Shown: positions 947-39,465 of the stretch, in pieces | How the letters are laid out: each line of letters starts with the position of its first letter | How positions within the stretch are numbered: the stretch's first letter is position 1 | IMG/VR virus record: IMGVR_UViG_2529293078_000013 | Length of the DNA: 39,465 bases | Direction: 5' to 3' (one strand) | From: a virus | Taxonomy: Duplodnaviria > Heunggongvirae > Uroviricota > Caudoviricetes | Position numbers and translations under genes: made by a program | The notes under the pieces: generated by a model | What the model was told of the DNA's origin: nothing | Database searches by the model: none | Seen by the model: only the letters and a program-made list of their open reading frames with translations

Positions 947-1100
947 GACAGGATTTCCTTGTGTATGTGGGGTGCTCTGTGGCGCTCGGAGATGTGATTT
1001 GATTGAGGGTTTTACAGCGCGGACATTTTACTTCCAGATAACTGAAACTGGCCCGTGCCAGTAGCTTATTGCAGTGTCGGCACCGTATGTTTCGATACAT
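900..1100 (-). CDS. com: Com-like zinc-finger translational activator of mom (the six-frame ORF extends to 1145; start at internal Met 1100 preferred)
   Basis: Motif [10 protein letters not shown]...VKCPRCK matches the Mu Com CxxC...CxxC zinc finger as I recall it; overlaps mom start. Confidence 0.75.
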
Positions 1101-1145
1101 GACCGCATAACCTCCTGCTTTGTTGTTGATGCCTTTCTCATGCAA

Positions 1146-1290
1146 TCGATCGACAAAAACGATCGATTCGATTTGTTTAATTGATACAACAAATAGATTG
1201 AAAAGTCATCAACAATGATTCAGGGAGGTGATTATTTACTTAAAGAAAACGAAGAGTTAGGTGGTGAAAACGATCATAAAATGATCATTT
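1146..1290. promoter_or_regulatory. com-mom upstream regulatory region with a cluster of Dam GATC sites
   Basis: Four GATC sites at 1148-1151, 1161-1164, 1272-1275 and 1283-1286, in palindromic contexts (ATCGATCGA; TGATCATAAAATGATCA); AT-rich. Confidence 0.4.
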
Positions 1291-1679
1291 TATTGACTTT
1301 TTATACAGTGAAGGTAGGATCACGCGTATATGTAGTATGTTTCAAATCAACAGGATACTACATAAAAGTGAAACCCAGCATAGCTGGAACTATGCTGGGT
1401 CAATCTGTAAAAACTTGCATCAATGCTTTACTTCGAGCTCGTGGCGTATCCTATGATATTCCCCGGTCTCCTGTAAAGCAGAGATGCATAAAAAGGAGAT
1501 CTTTATCATGGATGAAAGAGCCTGTTTGCCCTGCCTGTAAGACTCCCTTACAGCTCATCTATCGCCGTTCTCGATCTCAAAATGGCAAGACATACAAACC
1601 CAAAAATGCTTCCTGTTTCAGGATGCTGATATGTCCTGCCTGTTCTCCCAGGAGGGAAAATACACAAAACGTGCATTAA
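1215..1679 (+). CDS. Hypothetical plus-strand protein; C-terminal 55 aa form a two-CPAC zinc ribbon. Likely real start at 1512 (AGGAGA at 1494-1499)
   Basis: Only ORF in a 570-bp stretch lacking minus-strand ORFs; C-terminus CPACK...(x25)...C...CPAC; stop lies 10 nt before the bidirectional hairpin at 1689-1708. The N-terminal 100 aa are doubtful. Confidence 0.35.
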   Translation: MIQGGDYLLKENEELGGENDHKMIILLTFYTVKVGSRVYVVCFKSTGYYIKVKPSIAGTMLGQSVKTCINALLRARGVSYDIPRSPVKQRCIKRRSLSWMKEPVCPACKTPLQLIYRRSRSQNGKTYKPKNASCFRMLICPACSPRRENTQNVH

Positions 1680-2294: not shown

Positions 2295-2329
2295 CCCGCC
2301 AGCCATATCATGACCGGCGGGATTTTTTT
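2295..2329 (+). terminator. GC-stem hairpin followed by T7 run; intrinsic-terminator-like, oriented for plus-strand transcripts
   Basis: CCCGCC...GGCGGG stem (2295-2300 / 2316-2321) followed by TTTTTTT (2323-2329); abuts the stop of the 682-aa gene. Confidence 0.35.
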
Positions 2330-4466: not shown

Positions 4467-5027
4467 TTATTTTTCCGAAACGCTCGCAGGATAATAACGA
4501 TAAAGGGTTGAAAGGCCGATATCAAAAATAAGTGCCACCTGTCTTCGACTGACACCCCCGGCCAGTAAACGCCCGACCTGCTCGTATTGTTCCTGCGTGA
4601 GACGACGGGGTCTGCCGCCGGTTCGTCCCCTTTCACGGGCAGCTGCAAGACCAGCCCGTGTCCGTTCGACAATTAATTCACGCTCCATTTCTGCCAGCGC
4701 ACCCATTATGTGAAAAAAGAAGCGCCCCATGGGGGTTGACGTATCAATGTTGTCAGTAAGACTACGAAAATTTATCCCCTGTTGCTGTAATTCATCTGTC
4801 AGCGCAACAAGGTGGCGCATACTGCGCCCCAGCCTGTCCAGTTTCCAGACCATCAGTGTGTCACCGGGTTTTAGTTTCTTCAGTGCCCGCTTCAGTCCCG
4901 GCCGCTGTGTCGTTTTACCACTCATTTTGTCTTCAAAAATCTGCTCACATCCTGCACATTCCAGCGCATTTCTTTGTAAACCGGTGTTCTGGTCATTTGT
5001 TGATACGCGTATATAGCCAATCAGCAT
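4467..5027 (-). CDS. gin: Serine recombinase / DNA invertase (Gin/Hin/Pin/Cin family)
   Basis: MLIGYIRVSTNDQNTGLQRNALECAGCEQIFEDK... is near-identical in pattern to Mu Gin; adjacent to the invertible segment. Confidence 0.9.
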   Translation of the reverse strand: MLIGYIRVSTNDQNTGLQRNALECAGCEQIFEDKMSGKTTQRPGLKRALKKLKPGDTLMVWKLDRLGRSMRHLVALTDELQQQGINFRSLTDNIDTSTPMGRFFFHIMGALAEMERELIVERTRAGLAAARERGRTGGRPRRLTQEQYEQVGRLLAGGVSRRQVALIFDIGLSTLYRYYPASVSEK

Positions 5028-5081
5028 GTATTTACCTTCCTTAAAAAGAGGTGGAAAGGCCTTTTAAAGCAGATATACGGC

Positions 5082-5107
5082 ATCCCTGAAACCTCGGTTT
5101 ACGGGAT
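5082..5107. other. gix-like recombination site, gin-proximal boundary of the invertible segment
   Basis: AAACCTCGGTTTACGGGA matches the centre of the Mu gix site; 13-bp core TCGGTTTACGGGA recurs inverted at 6458-6470. Confidence 0.65.
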
Positions 5108-5452
5108 ACTGTAAACAGGGCCGCGAATGCCCTGCCATCGAACGGAACGGCTGTTGCAGCGAATAAACTCGCCACTCCAAGAAATATTAATGGTGTCCCA
5201 TTTGACGGAACGCAGGATATAAATATTACATCGGGGATGACGCAGTCTGTGGCTGACTCACGTTATGTTCAAAGCATTCGAAGAGGTTCAAGGTCAACGA
5301 TTGGAATGCAATATAATATTTTTGAAGTTCCTGACGGATGCGTACTTACAGGGCTTGATGTCGCTGGTGATGGTAATGCAACGGTAACCGCATATTATCG
5401 ACCTGTTCAGTTTCTGATAGATGGTTCGTGGAAAACAGCTTCCAGCGCATAA
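5090..5452 (+). CDS. Sv': promoterless alternative tail-fibre C-terminal segment (no start codon; expressed only after inversion, fused to the constant part of S)
   Basis: Frame open from the TGA at 5087-5089; encodes NLGLRDTVNRAANALPSNGTAVAANKLATPRNINGVPFDGTQDINITSGMTQS..., colinear with S residues about 175-230, then diverges; ends YYRPVQFLIDGSWKTASSA versus S YYRPVQIYINNAWRTVSSV. Confidence 0.7.
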   Translation, partial: NLGLRDTVNRAANALPSNGTAVAANKLATPRNINGVPFDGTQDINITSGMTQSVADSRYVQSIRRGSRSTIGMQYNIFEVPDGCVLTGLDVAGDGNATVTAYYRPVQFLIDGSWKTASSA

Positions 5453-5531
5453 AAGTGCAGTAGTTCAAAAAACAGATTATCTGAATAAATATATGATGAT
5501 TTTGTCTTTTCAACAAAAACAAGGTGAAATA

Positions 5532-6053
5532 ATGGAGCTTATTAACGTAAAACGATATTACCCGGAACACAAACCCTATGGTGAGGATGTTCAGTATTTC
5601 CAGAGTGAGGACGGAAGGGATTTTTATGAATCTATCCCGCTTTTCACAAAGAAATACAAACTCTGTATTTCGCCTGTAACGGGTATTATCTGCTCTGTTG
5701 CTGAAGATGTCTCTGCTTTATATCCGGCAGGTTTTACTGTTGTTGAAGTGGACGAACTGCCGGAAGGTGTGAATATTGACGGTAACTGGCAGTGTTCTGA
5801 TGGCCTGATATCAAAGGTGCCGGTAAACTGGAAGACGGTTGCTGAAAAGCGTCGCTCATCGCTGCTCCAGGAAGCCAACGAAACCGTGGATGACTGGAAA
5901 ACAGAATTAAAACTGGACATGATTAGCGATGAAAATAAATTACAGCTGACGCGCTGGATGGCGTATATCCGACAGCTTAAAGAAATGCACTTTAATGATA
6001 TTGCCAGTGAGGGGCATTACCAGGCGATTCCCTGGCCGGAAAAACCGGAATAA
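5532..6053 (+). CDS. Tail fibre assembly protein (Tfa/U'-like), partner of Sv'
   Basis: MELINVKRYYPEHKPYGEDVQYF... is a typical Tfa N-terminus; AAGGTGA RBS before ATG at 5532; lies inside the invertible segment. Confidence 0.8.
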   Translation: MELINVKRYYPEHKPYGEDVQYFQSEDGRDFYESIPLFTKKYKLCISPVTGIICSVAEDVSALYPAGFTVVEVDELPEGVNIDGNWQCSDGLISKVPVNWKTVAEKRRSSLLQEANETVDDWKTELKLDMISDENKLQLTRWMAYIRQLKEMHFNDIASEGHYQAIPWPEKPE

Positions 6054-26933: not shown

Positions 26934-27141
26934 GACGGGCCTCCATGATGTTCTGGCAGTTCACACAACGGATGGCATCCGGCACAGCAACAAGACGTGC
27001 GGCGGGGATCTCTCCGCCACAGTCCGCGCAGACACGTCTGCCCGGAGCATCCATTGCCCGGCGCTTACGTGTCAGCCGGTTACAAAGGGCGCGTTCTGAT
27101 CCCCGCTCCATCACAGCCTGAGCACGATCTGAATCATCCAT
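26914..27141 (-). CDS. TraR/DksA-type C4 zinc-finger protein (start at internal Met 27141 preferred)
   Basis: CADCGGEIPAARL...RCVNCQ zinc-finger motif. Confidence 0.6.
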   Translation of the reverse strand: MDDSDRAQAVMERGSERALCNRLTRKRRAMDAPGRRVCADCGGEIPAARLVAVPDAIRCVNCQNIMEARHVGQHR

Positions 27142-27151
27142 ACCTTTTTCC

Positions 27152-27523
27152 TTACTTCGTCTTTCCTGCCGGAACAGCAGGCGTTCCGGCCATATCAGTA
27201 AATTCATGTTGTCGCCGCGCCTCCAGACGACGAATACTGGCCTTGTCCACGTTGCAGTTCTTGATCACCGCCAGCAGTTGCAGGTTGTAAGTGACCGATG
27301 CCCCAAACGTGAACGGCTCCGGCGCAGGAGGGACCAGGCAGTCAGCCAGCCATTCAGCGGGGATCGGCACCGGCTTCACAGGCACGTATTTCACAGACGG
27401 CCCGGCGCACCCGATCAGCCACATCATCAGGAACAGGGGCAGAGGCCGCAGGCACTGCCTCCAGCGACCGGCGGACAACGCTCTGCTGCCCCTCGCTGTG
27501 CTGAATGTTCTGTTGTTTTTCAT
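27152..27523 (-). CDS. o-spanin (Rz1-like outer-membrane lipoprotein), start uncertain; overlaps the i-spanin gene in another frame
   Basis: Lipobox LIGC followed by a Pro-rich mature sequence (PSVKYVPVKPVPIPAE...PPAPEP). Confidence 0.45.
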   Translation of the reverse strand: MKNNRTFSTARGSRALSAGRWRQCLRPLPLFLMMWLIGCAGPSVKYVPVKPVPIPAEWLADCLVPPAPEPFTFGASVTYNLQLLAVIKNCNVDKASIRRLEARRQHEFTDMAGTPAVPAGKTK

Positions 27524-27875
27524 TCGTGGCCGCCTCACTGATTTGTGAAATGAGTTGCAGGGTGTGCTGCTGATTTGCCAGCACCTGACGCGCCTCATCC
27601 CGCTCACGCACAAGCACCTGATTATTGTCTTCAAGGCGCTGCGTCTTCTGGTGCATTCCCCATATAGCGGCAACCAGTACAGCGATAATCCCCAGCGCCG
27701 CCATGCACGCCCCGGCAATCAGGGCCGGTAAGGCATTATTCACCGCAGCCACAGGACACCCCGTAACAGCAGTACCGCACACAGCAGCGCTATCATGAGC
27801 GGTCGCCAGAAGCGGTTCAGACTTTCGGCAAGTCGTAGCGACATAACCATTCATCCGCCGAACGGCGGGCCTCAA
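27354..27875 (-). CDS. i-spanin (Rz-like), start uncertain
   Basis: Hydrophobic TM segment ALIAGACMAALGIIAVLVAAIWG followed by a Gln/Glu-rich coiled coil. Confidence 0.5.
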   Translation of the reverse strand: MRPAVRRMNGYVATTCRKSEPLLATAHDSAAVCGTAVTGCPVAAVNNALPALIAGACMAALGIIAVLVAAIWGMHQKTQRLEDNNQVLVRERDEARQVLANQQHTLQLISQISEAATNEKQQNIQHSEGQQSVVRRSLEAVPAASAPVPDDVADRVRRAVCEIRACEAGADPR

Positions 27876-28317
27876 GGCCGGGGAGTTTCACCCCCTTTGA
27901 ATAAATCCAGCGGATATACTGCTTACAGGACGCGGGCATCTGCCCGGCATTGATCAGGCGCAGAAGCGTGGAGTTGCGAAAGTTCGTTTCACCGGCCCAG
28001 AAGATCCACGAAGCCAGCGCCACCGTCTGACCACGGGTAAGCGGCACCTGAACACGCCGATCAATGGCCGCAAAGGCCCATTTCATGTCCTTTTCCAGTA
28101 GTTCCAGGCATTCTTCATCTGTCAGGGTCATACCCGGTTTCACATCCGGGCCGGTATGGCCGTAACAGATGGTGGGTGTACCGGTGGGATCGATATACGT
28201 GGAGTTTTCTTTCCCTTCCCAGTAACCGGTGTAATGCGTGGCAATCGTGAACGTCCCGGCACCGGCCAGAACAAGGGCAATCAGCTTTTTACGCAGTGGT
28301 GCGGGGAGTTTTGGCAT
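27817..28317 (-). CDS. SAR endolysin (lysozyme-like) resembling Mu Lys
   Basis: N-terminal signal-anchor LIALVLAGAGTFTIA; CYGHTGPDV and AAIDRRVQVPLT match Mu Lys motifs as I recall them. Confidence 0.8.
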   Translation of the reverse strand: MPKLPAPLRKKLIALVLAGAGTFTIATHYTGYWEGKENSTYIDPTGTPTICYGHTGPDVKPGMTLTDEECLELLEKDMKWAFAAIDRRVQVPLTRGQTVALASWIFWAGETNFRNSTLLRLINAGQMPASCKQYIRWIYSKGVKLPGLEARRSADEWLCRYDLPKV

Positions 28318-28388
28318 TGTTACGCTGTCTCATGATGTTCTCTGAGTCAGCGTAACGGTGAAGGAGAGGCGGCAGGCTTTGCGGAATA

Positions 28389-28814
28389 TCAGAAAAGTGG
28401 CGGTTGCGTTCTTACCAGATGCAGACGGCGCTGTTCGCGTATGACGGTATAAATCTGGGTTTCTGACATCCGGTAATGGCGGCGAAGGGATTCAATTTTC
28501 TCGCCCCGGTCCCAGCGCGAAAATATCTCATTGTTTCGCAGCTCGGCAAAGAGAGATTCCCCGACCGGCAGGTAATAACCCCGTCCGCCCATATAGGCGG
28601 CCTGAGCCGCAGCCACCTTGCGTGCCAGTTTACCGGCCAGTACCGGCTCAATCCCCTGACGCTGAAGTTCTGCGCCGGTGACTTCAACCAGTTCTGACAG
28701 GGTCCGCGGCCAGTTCTTTTTGAGAACATCATCAGGGATGTCATCAAGGCGGTCGATAAGGGCGTGCAGTTGCTCACTGTCACCACCAAACATGCTCATC
28801 TGAGTTTCTGCCAT
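28389..28814 (-). CDS. Mor/C-family late-transcription activator (the only recognisable member in this phage)
   Basis: C-terminal region GGRGYYLPVGESL...LRRHYRMSETQIYTVIREQRR resembles the Mor/C HTH; lies after the early terminator and before lys. Confidence 0.75.
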   Translation of the reverse strand: MAETQMSMFGGDSEQLHALIDRLDDIPDDVLKKNWPRTLSELVEVTGAELQRQGIEPVLAGKLARKVAAAQAAYMGGRGYYLPVGESLFAELRNNEIFSRWDRGEKIESLRRHYRMSETQIYTVIREQRRLHLVRTQPPLF

Positions 28815-28856
28815 ATCAGCCTCCGGTTCTCGCGTTCCCGGTAAGTTTAAAATAAA

Positions 28857-28880
28857 AATCCCGCGTTGTGGCGGGATTTG
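28857..28880 (-). terminator. Rho-independent terminator at the end of the early operon
   Basis: 9-bp stem AAATCCCGC/GCGGGATTT with 6-nt loop; on the minus-strand RNA it is followed by UUUAUUUUAAA. Confidence 0.65.
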
Positions 28881-28883
28881 GAG

Positions 28884-29393
28884 TTAACGGGGAAGTGATT
28901 TTTCATACTGCCTGCAAACGGCGTCATACCCCATCAGCGTGCGTTCGGGCATTCCCATCGCGGCCAGCATTTTGCGGCGGTGCCATCGCTTGAGACGCTC
29001 CAGCACATCTGAGGCCAGGGCGGGGTGTTGCTCCAGCCACTGCCAGTTTGCCACACCTTCGCCGCCGTTCTGCGCGGCCGTCTGCGATTTCACCCAGCGG
29101 TTAAGGGCGGTTTCCGCACCATCGGTGATAAAGCCCTGCCGGTGCATCACCTTCCAGATGGCGCGAATTTTGGCGGTCACCGTACCCGGTTTTAAGGCCC
29201 GGTTAACCGGGTTCTGACGCACTTTAAAACCGCGTTTTTTGAAAACATCCAGCACGCGGGATAACTCATCCGGTGACATATCCCGGCAGCTGGTTTTGCC
29301 GGTAGCTGCCAGCAGCGCGGATGTATAAGTCTCATCATCCAGGGCAAGCTCGCGCTTTGCCACATGAATGGCGGATATCAGTTTTCCTCTCAT
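28884..29393 (-). CDS. GemA-like protein (Mu gp16-position)
   Basis: 169-aa basic protein, last early gene before the terminator. Confidence 0.6.
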   Translation of the reverse strand: MRGKLISAIHVAKRELALDDETYTSALLAATGKTSCRDMSPDELSRVLDVFKKRGFKVRQNPVNRALKPGTVTAKIRAIWKVMHRQGFITDGAETALNRWVKSQTAAQNGGEGVANWQWLEQHPALASDVLERLKRWHRRKMLAAMGMPERTLMGYDAVCRQYEKSLPR

Positions 29394-29686
29394 ACCGTAT
29401 TTACCTTTTTACGGACATGGAAAGCCTTTTCTGCCTCATCCCACCGGGCATGGTGTGTTGGCGGAATAATCATTATGTGCCAGCCATCTCTGCTTGTTAT
29501 TCGGCAGAAAAATTCACCGTTATATAACACAATGGCCTGCTGAATGAGCGCATCAGCCGCCCGTTCAACCGGATGTCTTTTATCAAAAAAGCAGATGATT
29601 TTTCGACATAACCACCGGGTAATAACAAATGCGCCGAAAAAGGATGTGATATATAAGCACCAGAACAACAGAGAACTATTGTCCAT
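29390..29686 (-). CDS. Hypothetical small membrane protein (AT-rich early block)
   Basis: 98 aa with N-terminal TM helix LLFWCLYITSFFGAFVITRWL. Confidence 0.45.
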   Translation of the reverse strand: MDNSSLLFWCLYITSFFGAFVITRWLCRKIICFFDKRHPVERAADALIQQAIVLYNGEFFCRITSRDGWHIMIIPPTHHARWDEAEKAFHVRKKVNTV

Positions 29687-29873
29687 TATCTTTCTCCTTA
29701 TTCACTCTTCTGCGGCATTCGGCACAGTCATCAGGGCTTTCAAATGTATCCGGCTCGCGATTATGAGCCAGATATAACCACCGTCCACATATACTGATAT
29801 TTTCGCCTGTTTTAAAAAAATGATGCTTCCTGGCCATTAGTGGCCGCGCCCATCCAGCGGGTAGACTATTCAT
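29676..29873 (-). CDS. Hypothetical 65-aa protein with Cys/His cluster
   Basis: ICGRW...H...CAEC spacing suggests possible metal binding. Confidence 0.4.
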   Translation of the reverse strand: MNSLPAGWARPLMARKHHFFKTGENISICGRWLYLAHNREPDTFESPDDCAECRRRVNKEKDNGQ

Positions 29874-30201
29874 TTGCTTTATCCTCCATGCTGGACAGAA
29901 TCATATGTATTAATGTCGGGCGTGGAGATATACGCATTTCATTAAGCGTCTGAAGGGCAGCAACAGCTGCCTGTTTATCGGTGCCTTTGGCAATTTCAGC
30001 AAGAGAATGCACAATCCATAACGGGCTTAACGCTACGGCTGAATGCAGAATCATGTCATCCATAATAATTTCTGGCATATCCCGTTTGTCACATTCTTTA
30101 TCCATAAAAGAAACGATTTTTTCTGCATCTTCCGGTTTCATGCCTCCGGCGATGAGAATTTTACGATATTCATAAGACGATCTTAATTCAATACTCATCA
30201 T
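29866..30201 (-). CDS. Hypothetical protein
   Basis: 111-aa ORF coupled to its neighbours. Confidence 0.45.
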   Translation of the reverse strand: MMSIELRSSYEYRKILIAGGMKPEDAEKIVSFMDKECDKRDMPEIIMDDMILHSAVALSPLWIVHSLAEIAKGTDKQAAVAALQTLNEMRISPRPTLIHMILSSMEDKANE

Positions 30202-30213
30202 TCACCTGCCTGT

Positions 30214-30606
30214 TTAATCAGTTTCCAGTGCTTTGCTACGGGCAACAGCCTCACACTCAAAAAATACCGACTCCGGCACACGCTCCTTTAATTCACGAAC
30301 AAGAAAATCATTAACGAGTTCATGACGTCTTATATTTCTTTCCTTTTCCTCCTGGCGCAATACAGCAAGGCGGTATTCAACAGTCCGGCGTTGTTTCTGA
30401 AAGACAGCCAGTGCTTTTCTGGCAGAGTTACGCCATGTATCATCGCCACAGGGTTCGTATTCAAGCTGAAATTTAATCTCTTCAATGGTTTCTTTTATTT
30501 TTGCCAGCAAGCTAAGACAGTCGCTGATTGTCTTCAGTTTTTCATTATCAATATAACTTCTCACGCATTCACCTCCCGTCATTCCGGTAAAGCTGAAATA
30601 TGGCAC
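30214..30606 (-). CDS. Hypothetical protein
   Basis: 130-aa ORF with coiled-coil-like centre. Confidence 0.45.
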   Translation of the reverse strand: MPYFSFTGMTGGECVRSYIDNEKLKTISDCLSLLAKIKETIEEIKFQLEYEPCGDDTWRNSARKALAVFQKQRRTVEYRLAVLRQEEKERNIRRHELVNDFLVRELKERVPESVFFECEAVARSKALETD

Positions 30607-30890
30607 CAGTGCGTCACCTGTCCGTCCTCATCTTCAAGGCAGGCTCCGGTTTCTTCATCAATAAAAAAGCCTTCATACCCCATATGGCCGATGCGCAGTT
30701 CCTGTTGGTCACCATACTGAACAATCAGCACGACAGCCTCCATATCAGGCGGAAATGCGTCATCCAGTGAATGCCAGGGATAACCGCGCAAATCCCCGAA
30801 ATAAACACCGGTCAGCGTTCCGCCACAAACCGACATTCCGGCGGCACATACCAGAGGCTCGTCTGATTCAACAAATAATGTCGTTATCAT
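30579..30890 (-). CDS. Hypothetical strongly acidic protein (candidate DNA-mimic/anti-restriction)
   Basis: 103 aa with about 19 Asp/Glu against 2 Arg and no Lys. Confidence 0.45.
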   Translation of the reverse strand: MITTLFVESDEPLVCAAGMSVCGGTLTGVYFGDLRGYPWHSLDDAFPPDMEAVVLIVQYGDQQELRIGHMGYEGFFIDEETGACLEDEDGQVTHWCHISALPE

Positions 30891-31438
30891 GGCATTAACT
30901 CCCGTAATACAACATCTTCGGCAGTCCGGCGATGGTGATAAATAAAATTCACCGTACTCTCGGATAATTCAAATTTCTCGCCTATTTCCCGGAAGGTAAG
31001 ACGTCGTGGTGATTCAGCATCCCGTAATTCACGAATAAGATGAACATCATCATCAGGTATACGGGTGAAGGGCAGCAACTCTCCGTATTTTTTCATGCTT
31101 ACGCCAATATATCGCGCCCGTTTGTGGACAGGATCCCGGTCTCGCCCCAGATATTCTCCTATTTGCTTACCGGTCATCGTTCTGGCATTTTTTCGGATAA
31201 ATTTATCTTCATCATGTTTAAATCTTGGACGTTTGCATTTGAGCAACTCCGGGTAAGTACCGCGTAATAAAACAATCCGGTGATGTACACCCCAGAAACT
31301 TCTTTTTACCCTGACAGCAATATCCTTAACCGGGGTGGATGGATAAAGCGCAATCAGCAGTGCATCTTCTTCAGGTGTCCACGCACGGACATGAGCGGGT
31401 GCACGGCCTTTTCGCCCCATGGGTTGTAAAATCATCAT
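30887..31438 (-). CDS. Putative DNA-binding regulator with repeated HTH-like segments
   Basis: WTPEEDALLIALYP..., GKQIGEYLGRD..., LTFREIGEKFELSESTVNFIYHHRR. Confidence 0.5.
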   Translation of the reverse strand: MMILQPMGRKGRAPAHVRAWTPEEDALLIALYPSTPVKDIAVRVKRSFWGVHHRIVLLRGTYPELLKCKRPRFKHDEDKFIRKNARTMTGKQIGEYLGRDRDPVHKRARYIGVSMKKYGELLPFTRIPDDDVHLIRELRDAESPRRLTFREIGEKFELSESTVNFIYHHRRTAEDVVLRELMP

Positions 31439-31441
31439 ACA

Positions 31442-31957
31442 TCACCCCCTGACTCGCTTTTCAGCAGCATAAAACTCATCAGACAGAATTTCGGTCATTT
31501 TCTGTTTTGCGGGTTTTACGCCGCACTGAAGGTAAATCACATCGTCAACGCAGAACCACTCCACAGGGCCAAACAGGATTGCCGAGAAATCAATACCCAG
31601 CCAGAACAACAGGGCATCGGTTCTGGCATACGTGACGGGCGAATATTCACGCCACAGACTGTTAAGTTCGTCAGAGGCAGCGCACAGGGCTTTGGGAATA
31701 CACGATGTGCGCGGCGTGCAGCTCCAGCCATTCGACGCAGTCGGTTTTCGCCATAAGTCGCGATGAAAAGGATATTTGTTATCCGTAAAACGCAGTCCTT
31801 TAAAATAAAAACCATTGATACCGGATACAAATACCGACCGACAATCAACATTCAGCACGGCCTCAAGACGTTTTGCCTCATCCTTAACTTTCTGGCAGTC
31901 CTGCTGGTATTTTTGCCACGCAGCCAGCGCGGAAGGGTTTGATGTTTTAAAGAACAT
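31442..31957 (-). CDS. Hypothetical early protein
   Basis: 171-aa ORF, tightly packed with its neighbours. Confidence 0.5.
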   Translation of the reverse strand: MFFKTSNPSALAAWQKYQQDCQKVKDEAKRLEAVLNVDCRSVFVSGINGFYFKGLRFTDNKYPFHRDLWRKPTASNGWSCTPRTSCIPKALCAASDELNSLWREYSPVTYARTDALLFWLGIDFSAILFGPVEWFCVDDVIYLQCGVKPAKQKMTEILSDEFYAAEKRVRG

Positions 31958-32490
31958 TACGCCACCTCCGCAGATATCCCGGCAGGCGCGGCCGTCCGGT
32001 CAACAATCAGGTAACGCAGAACGCGCGAGGTGATATTCCAGCCGCTTAAACCGCAGATAATGACACCCAGGCGAATGTCGATATACGCCATCACAAACTG
32101 GGGCACGCCTTCTTTCATGGCCTGCTCATCAACTTCAGCCACCACATAAACGGTTTCGCAGGTCAGTACGCCCTGAGCAAATTCCCACGCCATCGACGGA
32201 ATATCATGCCCCTCAATCCACGGCAGGGACTTTCTGAAGCTGCACCACTGAACATCATCAGCCGCACCTTCCTGGCTGCATTTGCGACGAACCGGCTGCA
32301 CCGGGCGGGGACGCGGAATATCATAAAAACCGTTACATTCCGTCAGCACCCCGGCATCGACCGCATCACGCAGAAAATAAACCATCGAGGATGGCGGCAT
32401 ATTCATTTTTTCAGCCAGAACACCGCAGGTCAGACGTCCGTAAATACGCAGCCAGTTTTTAACCCCTTCAAGCACTTTTGCATCAATCAT
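31957..32490 (-). CDS. Hypothetical early protein, possible winged-helix N-terminus
   Basis: 177-aa ORF; start overlaps the upstream stop. Confidence 0.5.
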   Translation of the reverse strand: MIDAKVLEGVKNWLRIYGRLTCGVLAEKMNMPPSSMVYFLRDAVDAGVLTECNGFYDIPRPRPVQPVRRKCSQEGAADDVQWCSFRKSLPWIEGHDIPSMAWEFAQGVLTCETVYVVAEVDEQAMKEGVPQFVMAYIDIRLGVIICGLSGWNITSRVLRYLIVDRTAAPAGISAEVA

Positions 32491-32493
32491 GAA

Positions 32494-33036
32494 TTATTCC
32501 TCCGTCAGCGCCACATATTCAGAATGTTTAATTTCCTGGCATTCTTCAGGAATACACCCGTTTATTTCCCTGCCATAAGCGCCTACTTTAAACACCACGC
32601 ACAGGGCATCACGGGAGAGTGACGGGGTCCACCAGGAGTCCGTGTTAAACATGGAGGGGATTCTCATTACCCCCAGCTTTTCACAGAGCCAGACAAGGAA
32701 ATCAGGACGCTTTCTTAACTCGCGTTCAGCGGCTTCAACCATTGCGGCAATCGCCGGACCTTCAGGGCATGACTCATCAGGTCTGGCAATAAAGCACGGT
32801 CCGCCCCCGATAAAAGCCACATCATCGCGCTTACGCCAGCCCGCAGGCAGAGAACCAGAAAAATAAAACTCACTGATTACGTCCATGGCGAACGGCTTTA
32901 AGCGCAATCCGGCAGCGCCTGTATTTTTCAGTAATGCCCGAAGAATACTGTTGCGTAGCGGTAAAACAGTCTGTTGATATTTGGTGAAATATTTATTTGT
33001 CTGTACACGGTCTAATTTGAAATAAAAATATGCCAT
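32494..33036 (-). CDS. Hypothetical early protein
   Basis: 180-aa ORF directly downstream of gam. Confidence 0.5.
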   Translation of the reverse strand: MAYFYFKLDRVQTNKYFTKYQQTVLPLRNSILRALLKNTGAAGLRLKPFAMDVISEFYFSGSLPAGWRKRDDVAFIGGGPCFIARPDESCPEGPAIAAMVEAAERELRKRPDFLVWLCEKLGVMRIPSMFNTDSWWTPSLSRDALCVVFKVGAYGREINGCIPEECQEIKHSEYVALTEE

Positions 33037-33133
33037 ATTTCCTGTTCCTTATTTTCAGTTTACAGGCGCAGGCAGTCCCCTGACGCGAGCGCCATAATTA
33101 AAACGAAGTGATATTTAATTGATTAATGCGGTG

Positions 33134-33664
33134 TTATTTATTCAGTCCGGCGTCCTGTTCAAAAGGCTCGACATAAAAACTTTCAGCGCCTTTATTCACC
33201 TTAATACCGGCAATCCCTTTCACCGCATCCGGCTCCGCCAGGACCGCTTCCTTGTTCACTTCCTCTTTCGTGCGGATAAAACGCTCAAGGCCCATACGGC
33301 GCAGCATTTCAATCACACCTTCCACATCACGACTGACGCTGCATGATGGATTCCCCAGTCGCCATGACACCGTTCCGGTGGTCAGATTGGCAGTTTTGGT
33401 TTTGCCGCCGTTCGTCAGCTCATCACGGTTGGTTTTGCACCAGTCCTGAATCCCCTTAAAAAGCACTTTGATTTCTTTTTTAAGGTTTTCAATCTGCGGC
33501 GTATAACGGGCGGTGATTTCTGCCACTTCATCATTCATCGCTGTTTCCAGGCGCAGCGCCTCTCGCTGAATATCGCCCAGGGTGCGGATATCGCGGCTGA
33601 CCTCTTCACGGGTCTGCGGTGCCGCCTCTGCTGCGGCCTTTAATTTTGTAACGCGTTTTGCCAT
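33134..33664 (-). CDS. gam: Host-nuclease inhibitor Gam (Mu Gam/Ku-like DNA end-binding protein)
   Basis: LETAMNDEVAEIT..., NRDELTNGGKTKTANLTTGTVSWR, FIRTKEEVNKEAVLAEP closely match Mu Gam as I recall it. Confidence 0.9.
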   Translation of the reverse strand: MAKRVTKLKAAAEAAPQTREEVSRDIRTLGDIQREALRLETAMNDEVAEITARYTPQIENLKKEIKVLFKGIQDWCKTNRDELTNGGKTKTANLTTGTVSWRLGNPSCSVSRDVEGVIEMLRRMGLERFIRTKEEVNKEAVLAEPDAVKGIAGIKVNKGAESFYVEPFEQDAGLNK

Positions 33665-33675
33665 TTTGTTTTTCC

Positions 33676-33969
33676 TTATTGCAGTGTGCCTGATGCTTTA
33701 TGCACGCGGTGGCGTTTAATGATGGCATCCGCCCCAAAAGCCTGTACAGATGCCTGAAATTCCGCTGAGAGAAACTGAATAATTTCAGGACTGTGATACT
33801 GGAGAATACTTGCATAAACGCCACAGAGTGACGTCGGCCTGTTATTCGTATCACGTTCTGTTTTTACATCCACACCAATCTTTTCATGCACTTCAACACA
33901 GTCATTGCCTGCCGGTTTTTCGTCATGCGAAACATGCTTAAATTCAAAAATAACGCGTACTTTGCTCAT
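33676..33969 (-). CDS. Hypothetical protein, tandem paralogue 2 (start at internal Met 33969)
   Basis: Begins MSKVRVIFEFKH..., paralogous to the upstream MSKVVRIIFEYKEH... protein. Confidence 0.5.
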   Translation of the reverse strand: MSKVRVIFEFKHVSHDEKPAGNDCVEVHEKIGVDVKTERDTNNRPTSLCGVYASILQYHSPEIIQFLSAEFQASVQAFGADAIIKRHRVHKASGTLQ

Positions 33970-33973
33970 GGAA

Positions 33974-34246
33974 TTACCCCTGCTGATTAAATTCATTACC
34001 TTTAATAACCCCGGAACGCATGCTCATATCTTTCATGAGCGCACTGGCTTTCATTGCCACAAGTTCAGCAAAGTCTCTGCTTTCCGCGAGCATAACCACC
34101 CCAAAAATCATGGCGGGTCCATCACCTTTCTGCTTTATCCCGGTTGAACGTATGTCCAGACTTACCCCCATGCGCACTGTTCCATCAGCGTTTTTATGGA
34201 TAACGTGCTCCTTGTATTCGAAAATAATGCGTACGACTTTACTCAT
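33974..34246 (-). CDS. Hypothetical protein, tandem paralogue 1
   Basis: 90 aa; N-terminus MSKVVRIIFEYKEH shared with the downstream gene. Confidence 0.5.
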   Translation of the reverse strand: MSKVVRIIFEYKEHVIHKNADGTVRMGVSLDIRSTGIKQKGDGPAMIFGVVMLAESRDFAELVAMKASALMKDMSMRSGVIKGNEFNQQG

Positions 34247-34524
34247 CCTCTGGTCCTCGTTCTGTTTGGATAACTGACCCGGCGTCTGACCTCACGGCAG
34301 AACCGAATCATGGCATTAAAGGCTTCTTCCTCCGTCACCGCTTCCGGTATCCCCGGAACCAGTAACTGCTCCTGTTCATCACGTCCATGACGCGCCATAA
34401 CCTCAATCACATGCCGTACCGTGGCAGGCTTTCCGGCAACTATCGGCAATGCACCTTCCGGCAGGACGTAACCAAACTCAATAAGACCACTCGACCACGC
34501 CCATGCAATGAGATTTTTTTTCAC
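34243..34524 (-). CDS. Hypothetical early protein
   Basis: 93-aa ORF coupled to its neighbours. Confidence 0.45.
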   Translation of the reverse strand: MKKNLIAWAWSSGLIEFGYVLPEGALPIVAGKPATVRHVIEVMARHGRDEQEQLLVPGIPEAVTEEEAFNAMIRFCREVRRRVSYPNRTRTRG

Positions 34525-34525
34525 C

Positions 34526-34792
34526 TCACACCTCCCAGTAAACCGTGCAGCCGCTGATGCGGGTGGCCTTCACACGGCGGCGCAGGCCGTTGGTCTGTAT
34601 GGTGATTTCAATTTCACCGGTTCCCTGCACGTTGCCTACCGGCGGCGTGGTTTTCAGTGCAAAACGTTGCGGATAGCGCTTACTGCGTTCCAGTACCGCA
34701 CCGGCAAGTTCGGTCAGACGGCGCGCGCTGTTCAGGGAGTCGAATAAATTCATTTTGTTACCGCAGGATTGCATATTCATATAACACCTCAT
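34526..34792 (-). CDS. Hypothetical early protein
   Basis: 88-aa ORF; start may be an internal Met. Confidence 0.4.
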   Translation of the reverse strand: MRCYMNMQSCGNKMNLFDSLNSARRLTELAGAVLERSKRYPQRFALKTTPPVGNVQGTGEIEITIQTNGLRRRVKATRISGCTVYWEV

Positions 34793-35020
34793 TTAGCTGA
34801 CTTGTTTCGCACCAACAGAACGGCATATTCCGCTGTAAACGTCTGTCGCACCTTCGCGATCAAGTCCGGCAGATATCACCATTCGTGTGCGGTCATTAAA
34901 TTCAAAAAGTAAATCGCCACATTCTTTATTTTCGGCCAGTGAAATCACCTTCACGTTATCGAAATTAACCAGGTAAAAGCGTCCGTAAATATCAGGAATA
35001 TTAAATACCGCCATAATCAC
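34793..35020 (-). CDS. Hypothetical small protein at the Mu kil position (first gene after B)
   Basis: 75 aa, overlaps the B stop; Mu kil is about this size and here, but no sequence recognition. Confidence 0.45.
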   Translation of the reverse strand: MIMAVFNIPDIYGRFYLVNFDNVKVISLAENKECGDLLFEFNDRTRMVISAGLDREGATDVYSGICRSVGAKQVS

Positions 35021-35949
35021 ACCTGTGAGAGTAATTCAGGGTTGGTATAAACCTCTTTAAAGGCCGCATTAATATGTTTTTCTGTCAGCGCCGCGCCTTC
35101 ACCGCTGGCGGTGAGCCACGCCTGGTTAAGCGTATGTGTCAGAACGCGTAACGCTCCCGGCTTTTCAGCGATAGCCTGCATGACGGCCAGCTCGGCCTCA
35201 CCACTGATCCCCCACGCCCTGGCAATGGCCAGCACATCCGCCTTTTTGGCCTTGCGAAGTTGTTTTGTACGGGCAAGACGGCTGAACAGGCGCGATAAAT
35301 CATCAAAGGCGCGGCGTCCACCTTTAAACAATCCGCGCGGGTTACCAATAAGCACCATCCCGATCCCCGTGGCGTCCTGAATTGCCCGGAGTTGCTCCAG
35401 ACCGTCAATACCCAGATGATCCGCCTCATCCACAATCACCAGTCCACGCGTTCCCATCAGGCGACGGCGGATGGCGCGGGATAATGCCCCTTTGTTCGCG
35501 CGGGTGTAATCAATCCCCAGCGCATCGGCCAGCTCCAGCAGACACTCCGTGACGCTGGAGTGCGCGGGTGACAGGGTGATCATCCAGGTGTTTGGTTGCT
35601 CCTGGCAGTAATTACGGGCAGTGGCCGTTTTACCCACACCCGGTACGCCCACAATAACGTTAATACAGCCCATCAGACGAACCGCCTGAAACAGTGCGCG
35701 CAGCTCCTGGACTGTCTGCGTTTCCACAAACTGCGGCGGTTCCGGCAGTGCGCTTTGTTTATTCCAGTTTTCATACCAGGAACGCAGGGAAGCAGCCACA
35801 GCGGCGTTATCGCCTTTATATTTCCCCTTGCGGAAAGCCGATAATGTGCCGTCGGAAATTCCCGCCTCTCTGGCGATGGCATACTGCGTCAGTACGCCGC
35901 CATCAATAAGTTCATCAATGGTCTTGATTACATCGTTAATATCAGTCAT
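35017..35949 (-). CDS. B: Transposition ATPase / target DNA activator B (MuB-like AAA+)
   Basis: Walker A GVPGVGKT, Walker B LVIVDEADHL, and FVETQTV / KKADV...AW / KPGALR motifs match MuB as I recall it. Confidence 0.9.
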   Translation of the reverse strand: MTDINDVIKTIDELIDGGVLTQYAIAREAGISDGTLSAFRKGKYKGDNAAVAASLRSWYENWNKQSALPEPPQFVETQTVQELRALFQAVRLMGCINVIVGVPGVGKTATARNYCQEQPNTWMITLSPAHSSVTECLLELADALGIDYTRANKGALSRAIRRRLMGTRGLVIVDEADHLGIDGLEQLRAIQDATGIGMVLIGNPRGLFKGGRRAFDDLSRLFSRLARTKQLRKAKKADVLAIARAWGISGEAELAVMQAIAEKPGALRVLTHTLNQAWLTASGEGAALTEKHINAAFKEVYTNPELLSQV

Positions 35950-36020: not shown

Positions 36021-38111
36021 TCAGGCCAGCGGGTCATTTTCTTTTAATTTCGCTTCCAGCAACTGCAATCCCCGCTGGAAATTACGCTCGTATTCTTCAT
36101 CAGGTTCATCGTCAGCGACCGGTTGCTGAACGGTCACCGTATTACCCACAGGGCGGTATATGTTTTCCAGCCAGGGCTCCTGCGGCTTGTGCTCCAGCAC
36201 GTTGACAACCTCATCCTCGGCATCACGGATTTTTTCCTCTGCGCGTTTACGCATGCCTTTAAGGCGTTGCTGCTGTTTGTAGTATTCCGCGCTGACCGGG
36301 AAGGCTTCGCGTTTATTGCCGTCCCATACCGCCTCGCAAATCACGCTGCCATCCAGGCGACGTACGGTAATTCGTTCGGCATCATGAATGTCATAGCTGA
36401 TAAGCACCTTACGGCCATGCTCGTCACGCAGCTCGGGCGCGTAGTAAATATTATTCAGCCAGCGTATTTCACAGCGTCTTACAGGGCGTTCCACCATCGG
36501 CCGGAACATATCCCGCAGCTCAACATCGGACAGCCATTCAATTTCCGTGTCCTCTTCCGCCAGGCGTTTTTTTCTGAACTCCGCCGGGCTGTAATGCTTG
36601 CCGTTCGGCTTCACCGGTAATTCATCGTGCGGCCGGTTGTTGTACCACTCAACACCGTCACGAATGGCATCAATCAGTTCAGACCAGGACGGTAAATCAC
36701 GCATCGCTGACTGCTGCCGGGCGTTCAGCCGTTTGCCCTGTTGCAGGGCAGTAAATGCCGAGCGTAAATCGCGGTTGGTTTTGCGTAACGTCTCGCGATC
36801 TGCACCTTTCCCGAAATAGGTGCGGTATTTACGGGCTATGCGCATCGGTAATGTGCGGTTAAGCCGTTCGATAATGCCTCGTCCCTGCGGATTACCGGCA
36901 ATCCCGGTCGGGTGATTAATCCCCAGTCGCGGCAGTATCCCCACAACCTCCTTATCCAGGATGTCGGCGGTTTCCCCGGAGCCGTTATCCGAGTAATACA
37001 GAAACGGTTTGCCGTGATGGCGAATGCCGTGCTGTATGGCACCGGCTACGGCGAAAACATTTTCAGCCAGGTCAAGGCTCCAGCCCACCACAAAGCGCGT
37101 GCCACCGTCGATAACAAAGGTCACTTCCGGTGCAAATGGCCGACCGTGAACCGGGTGTGCGCATTTCAGCTTCATGCCGTGACCGTCACCAATCCAGACA
37201 TAATTCACCGGCATTCTGGACCAGTCGCGGCGCGTGAATCCCTCAAGCTGGCGGTATTCACTGCCGGTCACCCGGCCTTTTTGTTTCACCACTTCCGGCA
37301 GTTTCTTCATTGCGCGGCGAATGGTGTCATAAGACGGCATGATATCGAGCATATAAGGCTCATCAGCGTGCCGGTGCTGCCATTCAGCGACAAAATCCTC
37401 GTAAGCCTCGGTCATTGGTCGGCCGTTTGACTGGCGATACTGCGCCAGAAATTCGGGCAGCCAGTTAATATCTTCGGCTTTTATTTCCTGGCGCTTACCC
37501 GGTGCCAGTAAAAGCAGGCGTTCAGCGGCGTTCTGCGCCTTGTTAAAGGCCGCAATCCAGCGTTTCAGCGTGATTTCACTTAACGCGCGGCTGTTTCCCT
37601 TTTTGGCGTTCGCCGTCTCAACCATTGCCACAATGCGCTCGTCCAGCTGCGAACGTGCCAGGTTGTCAACGATAAACCGGATAGCCTTCGCACAGCTGAA
37701 ACCAGGTTGTTGCGCGACTTTCAGAACTTCGCTGACGATCGCGATTCGTGCATCAGCCACCTGGCGCTGGTTTTCAGTCAGGGCATTAAGGCGTTCGACC
37801 ATCAGTTGTGGTGATCCGCGATATGCCTCCACCGCATCAACCACGGCAGGCGAGCGTCTGGCCTTTGTCACCACTGGAGCCGGTGATTCATCGACTTTTT
37901 GAGTCATCAGTTGCAGGGCGTAGCGTTCACGTAATGCCTGCTGCGTCACTTCAGGTAAACAGTCGATGCTGTATTCAGTTGCTTTAGAGCCTGAGCGACG
38001 ACGGGAACAACAGCTTTTCCCTTGTACGTAACGTTGTAATGCCTGGCGAATACCTTTTGTTGTAGCAGGCATTCCGGGCGCGCCAATCAGTTCTTTTGCA
38101 ATGACATACAT
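36021..38111 (-). CDS. A: DDE transposase A (MuA-like)
   Basis: 696 aa; N-terminal DNA-binding region and central core (WIGDGHGMKL...GWSLD...) align in pattern with MuA; sits between ner and B. Confidence 0.9.
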   Translation of the reverse strand: MYVIAKELIGAPGMPATTKGIRQALQRYVQGKSCCSRRRSGSKATEYSIDCLPEVTQQALRERYALQLMTQKVDESPAPVVTKARRSPAVVDAVEAYRGSPQLMVERLNALTENQRQVADARIAIVSEVLKVAQQPGFSCAKAIRFIVDNLARSQLDERIVAMVETANAKKGNSRALSEITLKRWIAAFNKAQNAAERLLLLAPGKRQEIKAEDINWLPEFLAQYRQSNGRPMTEAYEDFVAEWQHRHADEPYMLDIMPSYDTIRRAMKKLPEVVKQKGRVTGSEYRQLEGFTRRDWSRMPVNYVWIGDGHGMKLKCAHPVHGRPFAPEVTFVIDGGTRFVVGWSLDLAENVFAVAGAIQHGIRHHGKPFLYYSDNGSGETADILDKEVVGILPRLGINHPTGIAGNPQGRGIIERLNRTLPMRIARKYRTYFGKGADRETLRKTNRDLRSAFTALQQGKRLNARQQSAMRDLPSWSELIDAIRDGVEWYNNRPHDELPVKPNGKHYSPAEFRKKRLAEEDTEIEWLSDVELRDMFRPMVERPVRRCEIRWLNNIYYAPELRDEHGRKVLISYDIHDAERITVRRLDGSVICEAVWDGNKREAFPVSAEYYKQQQRLKGMRKRAEEKIRDAEDEVVNVLEHKPQEPWLENIYRPVGNTVTVQQPVADDEPDEEYERNFQRGLQLLEAKLKENDPLA

Positions 38112-38112
38112 A

Positions 38113-38361
38113 TCATGACGCCTTTCTCATATAGCTCTTAACCTGGTATCGACTGGGCCAGATTTCTTCAGGCGATACCCCAAGAGCATCAGCAATTATT
38201 TGCTGATACGGTCGGCAAGGAGTACGTAATACGCTTTTCAGCGAATCCCTGCTGTAACCAGCCTTTAAAGATAAAGAGCGCAGTGATAAGCCAGCCATGT
38301 GTAAGCGCGCCTTGATGATTTCAGGCGGCCAATCGTGATCTGAAACTTCTCTTCTACTCAT
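38113..38361 (-). CDS. ner: Ner-like DNA-binding early regulator (Ner/Nlp family)
   Basis: IIADALGVSPEEIWPSRYQ matches the Ner/Nlp signature. Confidence 0.85.
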   Translation of the reverse strand: MSRREVSDHDWPPEIIKARLHMAGLSLRSLSLKAGYSRDSLKSVLRTPCRPYQQIIADALGVSPEEIWPSRYQVKSYMRKAS

Positions 38362-38528
38362 ACTTCCTCTATTCTAAAAAGTTACCCGCGCGGATATTCG
38401 TGCGGATATCTGTACGGGTAAATAATAGAACAAACAAAAGAACCAAATCAAGGTATTTTGTTCTTTTTATTCTTTGCGGTGTTTTTGTTATTAATATCAA
38501 TAAGATAAATACAAAGGAACCTGAGAGC
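38362..38528. promoter_or_regulatory. Divergent early/repressor promoter-operator region with repeats
   Basis: Inverted repeat TTACCCG...CGGGTAA flanking direct repeats GCGGATAT x2; second inverted repeat AAAAGAAC...GTTCTTTT with 16-bp spacer; AT-rich. Confidence 0.5.
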
Positions 38529-39113
38529 ATGAACATGAAAAACAGTTCTTTTCTCGACGAAGGAAAAGAACCAGTGATCGAACGGATTTTTCGTCTTGCA
38601 GAGCGTTACAAATCGAGAAGTGAGGCGGCTAGAGCATGGGGAATAAACGTTCAGACATTGCAGAACTACTACAAAAGGAGAAACAATCAGCCGCCACCAC
38701 AACCAAGAAAGCACCATCTCCAGAACATTGCAGAAAGAGAACATGTATCTATGGAGTGGCTAGTCAATGGTTATGGTGATGAGCCAAGCATGAAAAAAGA
38801 ACCAATTGAACAAACAAAAAGAACAAAAAAACAAAGAATTGATGATAGTGATTCCATCATCATGAGGGCGTGGGACTCGCTAACTTCATCTGAACAAGAG
38901 ATTTTGTCCAACTTATTGATCAGAAAAGGGGCCGAACTACTAACCGTTTTGCTTGATACAGATATTCAAAAACTGCACTCATTGAGCGGAGTCAAAAGAG
39001 CACTAGCATTGAGTCTACAAGAGTTACCCGATGATACTGTAAGAGAGATTTATGAAGAATGTGAAGCTAAGGTTAATCATTTAAATGTAACCCAGAAAAA
39101 GGCTGGTGCGTAA
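38529..39113 (+). CDS. c: Mu c-type lysogeny repressor (the six-frame ORF starts at 38400; start at Met 38529 preferred, AGGAA RBS)
   Basis: Divergent from ner next to the left end; N-terminal HTH; C-terminal region resembles the Mu repressor C-terminal domain. Confidence 0.7.
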   Translation: MNMKNSSFLDEGKEPVIERIFRLAERYKSRSEAARAWGINVQTLQNYYKRRNNQPPPQPRKHHLQNIAEREHVSMEWLVNGYGDEPSMKKEPIEQTKRTKKQRIDDSDSIIMRAWDSLTSSEQEILSNLLIRKGAELLTVLLDTDIQKLHSLSGVKRALALSLQELPDDTVREIYEECEAKVNHLNVTQKKAGA

Positions 39114-39210
39114 GGGAGTGGTGCAATTTTTGTGCTGTAGTACACTCCTTTAAAGACAATCTGGAGAAAAACGTTTTAAGCCTTTTTAAAGCCATTTTAA
39201 GCGTCAATCC

Positions 39211-39372
39211 GTAGTATCAAAAGTTTTGCCGATTTTAGAATAAACGATTAATTATTGCACAATCGGTATCAAATAGACTTTAAGCGCTCATCCAGACATC
39301 ACCTGTTTTATTTCAGTATCTTACAGGTGATTTCACCTCCTTTCACTAAAACCCTCGTTGGTATCAAATGAT
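39211..39372. repeat. Left-end (attL) cluster of three putative transposase-binding repeats with L1/L2/L3-like spacing
   Basis: GGTATCAAA at 39360-39368 and 39265-39273, AGTATCAAA at 39213-39221: inverted copies of the right-end motif; one site near the end, two about 95 and 145 bp inward, as in Mu. Confidence 0.6.
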
Positions 39373-39465
39373 TCACCTGGTTACAAGAAATGACAAAGGC
39401 ATCATTACGGTGCCTGAGTGTTAAACAACTGTTTTGACTTTATTCACTTACATTTTGCCAATTTG

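Follow-up and report, generated by a model that had tools for sequence, protein, structure and literature searches.

A variable, low-GC segment in the early operon of a Mu-like Escherichia coli prophage encodes a strongly acidic protein with a divergent DUF551-like domain

Five small genes lie side by side ahead of gemA in a Mu-like prophage, one of them encoding a 103-amino-acid (aa) protein of extreme acidity: what kind of segment is this, and does the acidic protein imitate DNA in the manner of Ocr and ArdA? The locus belongs to virus record IMGVR_UViG_2529293078_000013, whose whole stretch of 39,465 nucleotides (39.5 kb) is referred to here as the window, and the five genes (the block) occupy positions 29390–30890. 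By gene content and order, the window is a complete Mu-like prophage of Escherichia coli. Over the block region, chromosomal prophages of Shiga-toxigenic E. coli (STEC) strains, such as NZ_CP101302, match it at 100% identity, and segments described as ‘inserted Mu-like phage’ in two Stx-phage records at 96–98%. The original prediction, made from the letters of the DNA, had assigned the block to the semi-essential early region of a Mu-like phage and had put forward the acidic protein as a candidate Ocr/ArdA-like mimic. Its view of the location and accessory nature of the block stands, whereas the Ocr/ArdA-like mimic is not supported, given a match to DUF551 and a beta-rich structural model. In the explanation that we favour, with a probability of about 0.6, the tract from 29390 to 31440 would be a part of the Mu-like early operon given over to exchangeable accessory genes, expressed along with the transposition genes and made up of cassettes from an AT-richer phage pool, and the acidic protein would be a divergent DUF551 barrel that binds a basic partner early in lytic growth.

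The early genes of the prophage are all on the minus strand, in the order A, B, small open reading frames (ORFs), gam, a 180-aa ORF, gp11, gp12, a gene for a 183-aa helix-turn-helix (HTH) protein, the five-gene block, gemA, mor and lysozyme (Table 1; protein comparisons with Mu were made by BLASTP against AF083977). The block and the HTH gene fill the space between gp12 and gemA, where Mu has gp13, gp14 and gp15. As had been supposed, gam is nearby, and the block is flanked by gam and the transposition genes on one side and by gemA–mor on the other, all on the same strand. A survey of 5426 complete E. coli genomes placed the gemA of this lineage at 270 sites (231 genomes) and the acidic gene at 160 (144 genomes), which means that ~59% of copies retain the latter. 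In E. coli prophages whose flanks are 83–99% identical, the slot holds at least four alternative gene sets. In the O157:H7-type variant L007, 30214–30880 (the 116-aa and acidic genes) is replaced by 201 bp coding for a 61-aa peptide with two transmembrane segments; in L008, a reverse-strand gene with a weak match to DUF2513 takes the place of 29370–29953, a stretch that covers the genes for the transmembrane and 65-aa proteins and the 3' part of the 111-aa gene; and in L009, a Mu gp14-like gene and a reverse-strand gene for a 79-aa protein stand where the window has 29370–30566 (four genes). Most breakpoints fall at gene borders or within a few bases of them, the exception being that of L008 at 29953/29954, inside the 111-aa gene. 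The slot thus behaves as an accessory-gene hotspot, and its genes are dispensable, or vary between related phages, at a position within the early operon, as is the case for Mu-like accessory genes. For SfMu, proteins unique to that phage, or to Mu and D108, have been reported to lie within one shared genome region (PMC4406740).

Genes on the opposite strand recur in and around this slot. Those of the two E. coli variants lie at 963–1310 (+) in L008 and 968–1207 (+) in L009, the latter encoding an acidic protein, and two others adjoin gemA in distant Mu-like prophages (L005 2235–2456 (−) and 3069–3377 (−)), including one for a signal-peptide-like 102-aa protein. These reverse-strand genes look like morons expressed apart from the early operon.

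Base composition also sets the segment off from the late genes. The GC content of 29390–30890 is 0.446 (44.6%), compared with 0.572 over the late genes (7501–29389) and likewise over 27000–29389, 0.490 over 30891–35000 and 0.532 over the whole window, and just 3.4% of 1501-bp windows do not exceed this value; apart from those here, they lie at the mom end, near the gin/tail-fibre segment (~4650–4900) and at the repressor end. GC at third codon positions is 0.37–0.47 in the block genes versus 0.57–0.65 in gemA, mor and lys. GC drops abruptly, from ~0.55 to ~0.44, exactly at the gemA start (29390), while on the upstream side low GC runs on through the 183-aa HTH gene to ~31440 and then climbs only to ~0.51. 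By-eye inspection had suggested that the block is more AT-rich than both flanks and had delimited it to five genes in 29390–30890. Sliding-window GC bears out the former strongly on the late side, but only modestly against the upstream early region, since GC beyond ~31440 is only ~0.51; the five ORFs are indeed there, but the real low-GC tract is 29390–31440, with six genes rather than five. Given the drop at the gemA start and the low GC through the HTH gene, this tract is the same one over which synteny with Mu is lost.

Within the tract the genes are tightly packed. ATGA-type start/stop overlaps are found at 30887–30890 (HTH stop and acidic-gene ATG) and at 29390–29393 (98-aa gene stop and gemA start), further genes overlap at 29866–29873 and 29676–29686, and recognizable ribosome-binding sites are present, that of the acidic gene being GGGAG, 9 nt upstream of the ATG. 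For the 116-aa protein, the mechanical ORF is 130 aa long (to 30606) but the most likely start is the GTG at 30564, because GGAGG lies upstream of it, PGAP uses it, and the PHROG match covers residues 15–130 of the 130-aa ORF. Inside the block, promoter-like sites were not above the level of shuffled sequence (5 observed versus 6.9 expected), and terminator-like sites (8 versus 5.2 in shuffled sequence) were judged no more frequent. No strong terminator separates the block from the upstream early genes, a terminator-like hairpin appearing only after gemA. The coupled and overlapping genes would fit a single early transcript, in which the block would be read together with the transposition genes from the early promoter as far as the hairpin past gemA.

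We then consider the acidic protein itself. Its net charge was computed as −17, matching the earlier estimate, with 19 Asp and Glu residues (D+E), two Lys and Arg residues and an isoelectric point (pI) of 4.05. D+E make up only 18% of the residues, and the extreme net charge arises mostly because Lys and Arg are nearly absent. Close homologues are found in E. coli and Salmonella only, in clusters with hundreds of intact members, and an exhaustive profile search retrieved distant members of 98–117 aa and 31–47% identity, one from Serratia and the others from metagenome assemblies. Strong acidity is common to the whole family (net −11 to −18). Each of the four distant cases examined has the gene within a Mu-like early operon, ahead of gemA; in three of the four it comes after a Gp11_C or Gp12 gene, directly so in two, and start and stop codons often overlap. 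The length, motifs and Mu-like position conserved in these distant members thus indicate that the gene is real, and that acidity and position are themselves conserved. Eight residues are invariant in the subfamily (G24, D33, R35, W39, P47, G82, T93 and W95) and form no catalytic set. The protein consists of a family-specific N-terminal extension of ~36 residues, with consensus hhV.FE...P......ILGG.L..V.F.D.R, followed by a DUF551-like domain at ~37–103.

That this domain is a divergent member of DUF551, a small SH3/Tudor-like beta-barrel homologous over its whole length, rests on four independent lines of evidence. The Pfam DUF551 profile (PF04448) aligned with residues 39–96 through profile positions 2–61 of 68 (13.0 bits, E 0.2), and with four relatives at 15.2–18.2 bits (E 0.0047–0.04), all sub-threshold. 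The motifs of the domain are present as PWHSLDDAFPP at residues 38–48 and VTHWCHISALPE at residues 92–103, the latter an end of the VTHW...P.P type. Profile–profile comparison with hhalign of the family alignment (A5) and four Pfam-verified DUF551 proteins (A6) gave a probability of 96.1% (E 3.7e-9) over residues 37–103, rising to 97% (E 1.3e-10) with a fifth protein (P0037) in the reference set, and 81% against YfdS alone (A3); this reference set is small, comprising YfdS and three or four others, as a search from one DUF551 protein gave three sequences. Controls with the reversed and 20 column-shuffled profiles reached at most 0.5% probability, with scores of 8–14 versus 54, and the match is therefore no artefact of composition. 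Finally, AlphaFold2 run on a 15-sequence alignment yielded a compact, beta-rich model with a predicted local distance difference test (pLDDT) score of 81 (an earlier model from a shallow alignment, with pLDDT 51, was discarded). In a Foldseek search of BFVD (predicted viral structures), most of the 50 best matches to the model were annotated as DUF551, with a best E of 1.7e-3 and target-normalised template-modelling scores of up to 0.81.

The acidic protein thus shares with YfdS of the E. coli prophage CPS-53, the P22-like ‘EaE’ and the C-terminal domain of Ea22 V2 an acidic, beta-rich domain of ~65 residues, with W-x-[SPA]-[LV]-x3-[LFW]-P-P near its start and V-T-H-W-x3-5-P-x-P at its end, profile and fold matches spanning the whole domain. 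Like these, it is encoded among early, non-essential genes of a temperate phage. Every DUF551 protein in the available set is acidic (net −5 to −14), and acidity has also been noted for the C-terminal domains of Ea22, including the DUF551-containing V2 variant of Stx phages (PMC10834534). The Mu-like subfamily differs in having its own N-terminal extension, in being more acidic and in its sub-threshold Pfam scores, and it is confined to the gp12–gemA slot of Mu-like phages instead of the exo–xis/ea region of lambdoid phages.

Could such a protein nonetheless act as a DNA mimic? It resembles Ocr (T7 gp0.3) and ArdA in being small, with a pI of ~4 and a large negative net charge, and, from the genes around it, in its probable early expression. 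It differs from them in that they form helical, DNA-shaped dimers, whereas the model of the acidic protein is a beta-rich, compact barrel rather than an elongated, mainly helical fold patterned like B-DNA. Searches with an E limit of 10 matched no Pfam family other than the weakly scoring DUF551 and brought up neither Ocr nor ArdA among PDB sequences, and no fold match was found between the model and any solved DNA mimic. A PDB sequence match to gp84 (9zd7; E 0.46) was not reproduced with the profile and was taken as chance. Neither the sequence nor the predicted fold is thus that of Ocr or ArdA. On a broader version of the idea, the protein would relieve restriction as they do, or block another DNA-binding defence with carboxylates arrayed like phosphates, and the other genes of the block would likewise counter defences. 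Its charge and pI, the acidity kept in relatives only 31–47% identical, the early variable slot (of the kind where phages hold counter-defence genes) and the presence of the gene in only ~59% of prophage copies, as expected of an arms-race gene, would all suit this, and known DNA mimics have diverse folds, so that a beta-barrel alone does not speak against one. We nevertheless regard it as quite improbable: besides the lack of similarity to any solved mimic and the compact model, the protein falls within DUF551, a domain that is acidic in every available member and occurs in fusion with numerous other modules, and the D+E fraction of Ocr is well above 18%. Moreover, Mom is the classical anti-restriction DNA modification of Mu, and the prophage carries a mom gene (Table 1), so that the element already owns a dedicated counter-restriction function outside the block. 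Nothing in the present analysis specifically supports a DNA-competitive mode of action.

A more speculative extension, which we likewise consider a long shot, is that DUF551 is a compact negative beta-barrel deployed early against a DNA- or RNA-binding host immunity protein, in a nucleic-acid-competitive or sponge-like way and with a fold new among DNA mimics, the neighbouring cassettes being more counter-defence genes. If this were true, the acidic subfamily of Mu-like phages could reveal the function of the whole DUF551 superfamily.

Under the explanation that we prefer, the tract between the conserved gp11–gp12 and gemA–mor pairs would be a variable accessory segment of the early operon, in which whole genes or gene pairs are swapped among related prophages at or near gene borders, and its low GC would stem from an origin in an AT-richer pool of mobile phage accessory genes. 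As it has no conserved catalytic-type residues, the acidic protein most likely acts stoichiometrically. Early in lytic growth it would bind a positively charged protein encoded by the host or by a competing element, and would do so as a dispensable modulator, not by copying the structure of B-DNA as Ocr and ArdA do; it might also act against host defences. Several points weigh against this explanation. The protein falls below the Pfam gathering threshold for DUF551 (13 vs 22 bits), a threshold that YfdS itself, an accepted member, barely passes (22.2 bits vs the cut-off of 22), and the BFVD E-values are modest even at their best. The suggestion of protein binding is drawn from the predicted type of fold and the absence of catalytic residues, and extreme acidity conserved at 31–47% identity is equally expected of a nucleic-acid mimic. 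The literature searched held no functional data for the five block proteins or for DUF551; queries that included the protein accession and PHROG identifiers found no paper on any of the block proteins or on the gp12–gemA slot.

Two further accounts of the block have to be weighed. Its genes might instead modulate the development of the phage itself, through the efficiency of replication or transposition, the lysis–lysogeny balance or membrane events, in the way of the semi-essential ‘arm’/‘lig’-type functions of Mu or of lambda Ea22, which favours lysogeny. This would fit the coupling of the acidic gene, in position and translation, to gp11/gp12 and gemA in distant relatives, and the adjacency of the 65-aa H/C/C/C protein to replication genes in other phages. 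DUF551, described as a portable domain with no assigned function (PMC10834534; PMC4776307), is moreover part of the Stx-phage variant Ea22 V2, from a pro-lysogenic early protein family (PMC10834534), and of YfdS, from a prophage gene set (YfdQRST) whose overexpression inhibits the initiation of chromosomal replication (PMC4776307). We think such a developmental role unlikely, as the block genes are dispensable and freely exchanged among near-identical prophages, and are absent from Mu, D108 and SfMu-type phages, which develop normally. Far less plausible is a reading in which the prophage is domesticated and the five ORFs, or some of them, are functionless remnants in decay, their low GC being due to mutational drift. 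Frameshifted or truncated copies do exist (P0016, P0017, P0012–P0015), and many STEC prophages are defective, but each ORF has near full-length matches in a PHROG family, homologue clusters contain hundreds of intact members, and the compact, coupled gene organization is kept; the acidic family, in addition, keeps its length, motifs and position across genera and folds confidently (pLDDT 81).

Comparison with Mu places the tract in a wider setting. Mu gp13–gp14–gp15 (E14, E15, Mu_54) have the same position and strand and belong to the same early operon as the block, and the Mu slot likewise has a lower GC content (0.455–0.48) and encodes small proteins: a mini-protein rich in Cys, others that are helical and, beside gemA, a small hydrophobic one. 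This last, gp15, looks hydrophobic from its sequence, like the 98-aa transmembrane protein. In L009, an E. coli variant of the prophage, the slot even houses the gp14-like gene. BLASTP revealed no similarity of the block proteins to gp13, gp14 or gp15, or to any other Mu protein, and Mu is without a DUF551-like acidic protein. The slot also resembles the accessory-gene (AG) hotspots of enterobacterial phages described by Silas et al., who in this way identified Mu E6/Mup07 as gnarl2 (bioRxiv 10.1101/2023.04.06.535777), in that small, fast-changing genes lie between conserved flanks and differ among near-identical phages. E6/Mup07 (gnarl2) is a precedent for host-modifying accessory genes in the early region of Mu.

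An accessory slot that holds a sub-threshold member of DUF551 is unsurprising for a temperate phage. The protein is a new member of a known, uncharacterized domain family, encoded in a typical phage accessory slot. If the favoured explanation is right, it gives a setting to five ‘hypothetical proteins’ that pathogenic E. coli and Salmonella encode in hundreds of genomes, and it places one of the five in DUF551, a domain very common in phages but without an assigned function. With its fixed position, dispensability and conserved extreme acidity, the acidic subfamily offers a convenient small entry point to DUF551 function, and the alternative cassettes of the slot provide a ready list of candidate host-interaction or counter-defence genes.

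Table 1. Coordinates, in the window, of the block, its early-operon surroundings and selected genes near the mom end of the prophage.
Feature	Position	Strand	Remarks
98-aa protein, one N-terminal transmembrane segment	29390–29686	−	phrog_17269, family without assigned function
65-aa H/C/C/C protein	29676–29873	−	phrog_2358, family without assigned function; putative zinc-binding mini-protein
110/111-aa protein, mildly acidic (net −5/−6)	29866–30201	−	phrog_1988, family without assigned function
116-aa protein	30214–30564	−	phrog_6158, family without assigned function
103-aa strongly acidic protein	30579–30890	−	phrog_6925; divergent DUF551-like beta-barrel, predicted
183-aa HTH/Myb-like DNA-binding protein (predicted)	30887–31438	−	phrog_323; within low-GC, non-syntenic tract
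gp12 homologue	31442–31957	−	54% identity to Mu gp12; conserved upstream border of variable slot
gp11 homologue	31957–32490	−	Pfam Gp11_C; 68% identity to Mu gp11
180-aa gene, gam/gp11 interval	32494–33036	−	phrog_2260, family without assigned function
Gam host-nuclease inhibitor	33134–33664	−	57% identity to Mu Gam
B	35017–35949	−	early operon
Transposase A	36021–38111	−	early operon
GemA (gp16) homologue	28884–29393	−	44% identity to Mu GemA; conserved downstream slot border; GC step at start codon
Terminator-like hairpin, 9-bp stem and T run	28856–28879	−	just past gemA; strongest such hairpin 3' of block
Mor	28389–28814	−	27% identity to Mu Mor
Mom-family protein	209–946	−	right end of prophage; PF25680, E 4e-77
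682-aa protein	2328–4376	−	SASA carbohydrate (sialate-type) acetylesterase domain and DUF6645; between mom and gin-like invertase
Gin-like serine invertase	4467–5027		Resolvase and HTH_7
Tail-fibre assembly gene	5421–6053		oriented oppositely to the adjoining gin-like gene

The five ORFs of the block, all on the minus strand as predicted and annotated by RefSeq as hypothetical proteins in identical prophages, each have near full-length matches to PHROG families. The four other than the DUF551-like protein gave no meaningful match to Pfam, NCBIfam, PADLOC (defence-system) models or PDB sequences, and NCBIfam and PADLOC models matched none of the five meaningfully; PDB sequence matches of the 111-, 116- and 65-aa proteins were at chance level only. 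Homologues of the 111-aa protein are present in SfMu and in Yersinia Mu-like phages. Both the transmembrane protein and the Cys/His-containing protein noted at the outset were recovered. The former, the 98-aa protein, has a single hydrophobic segment at residues 5–23 (KD19 1.82), and a weak relative of its gene is located at the same place, directly upstream of gemA, in a Serratia Mu-like prophage. The latter, of 65 aa, has three Cys and three His residues. Distant homologues without exception keep H18, C29, C51 and C54 of these, together with a GW..P...K.HFF motif, and the protein is probably a small zinc-binding one. Its family extends to ~170 PB1-like Pseudomonas phages and several unrelated E. 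coli phages (relatives of the gene lie at L012 1477–1689, L013 1480–1674 and L014 1486–1689), in two of the latter in the same cluster as replication genes (polymerase, nuclease, helicase or sliding-clamp).

Upstream of the block, the 183-aa HTH protein is related to Mu gp9 through its C-terminal half (31% identity, E 9e-9). This gp9-related gene is here downstream of gp12, not upstream of gam, and it diverges sharply among variants of the prophage, to ~70% identity where the flanks exceed 90%. A second variable slot is found at the 180-aa gene between gam and gp11, which is missing in L008 and L010, homology stopping at 32498 and returning at 33019.

Towards the right end, the 682-aa SASA-domain protein may be a receptor-modifying or tail-associated esterase, an unusual cargo in comparison with Mu. 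The gin-like gene together with the tail-fibre assembly gene (4467–6053) suggests an invertible host-range segment as in Mu; local GC is low there (~0.42–0.43). The lowest GC of the window, ~0.40, is that of the repressor end (38001–39465), where Pfam matched nothing in a plus-strand ORF at 38400–39113 and the RefSeq annotation has a hypothetical protein of only 176 aa, shorter than this ORF; in the reference genome the repressor end is followed by the host gene ycjT. In some E. coli genomes this Mu-like lineage is present as many as four times, and one copy resides on a plasmid, consistent with active transposition.

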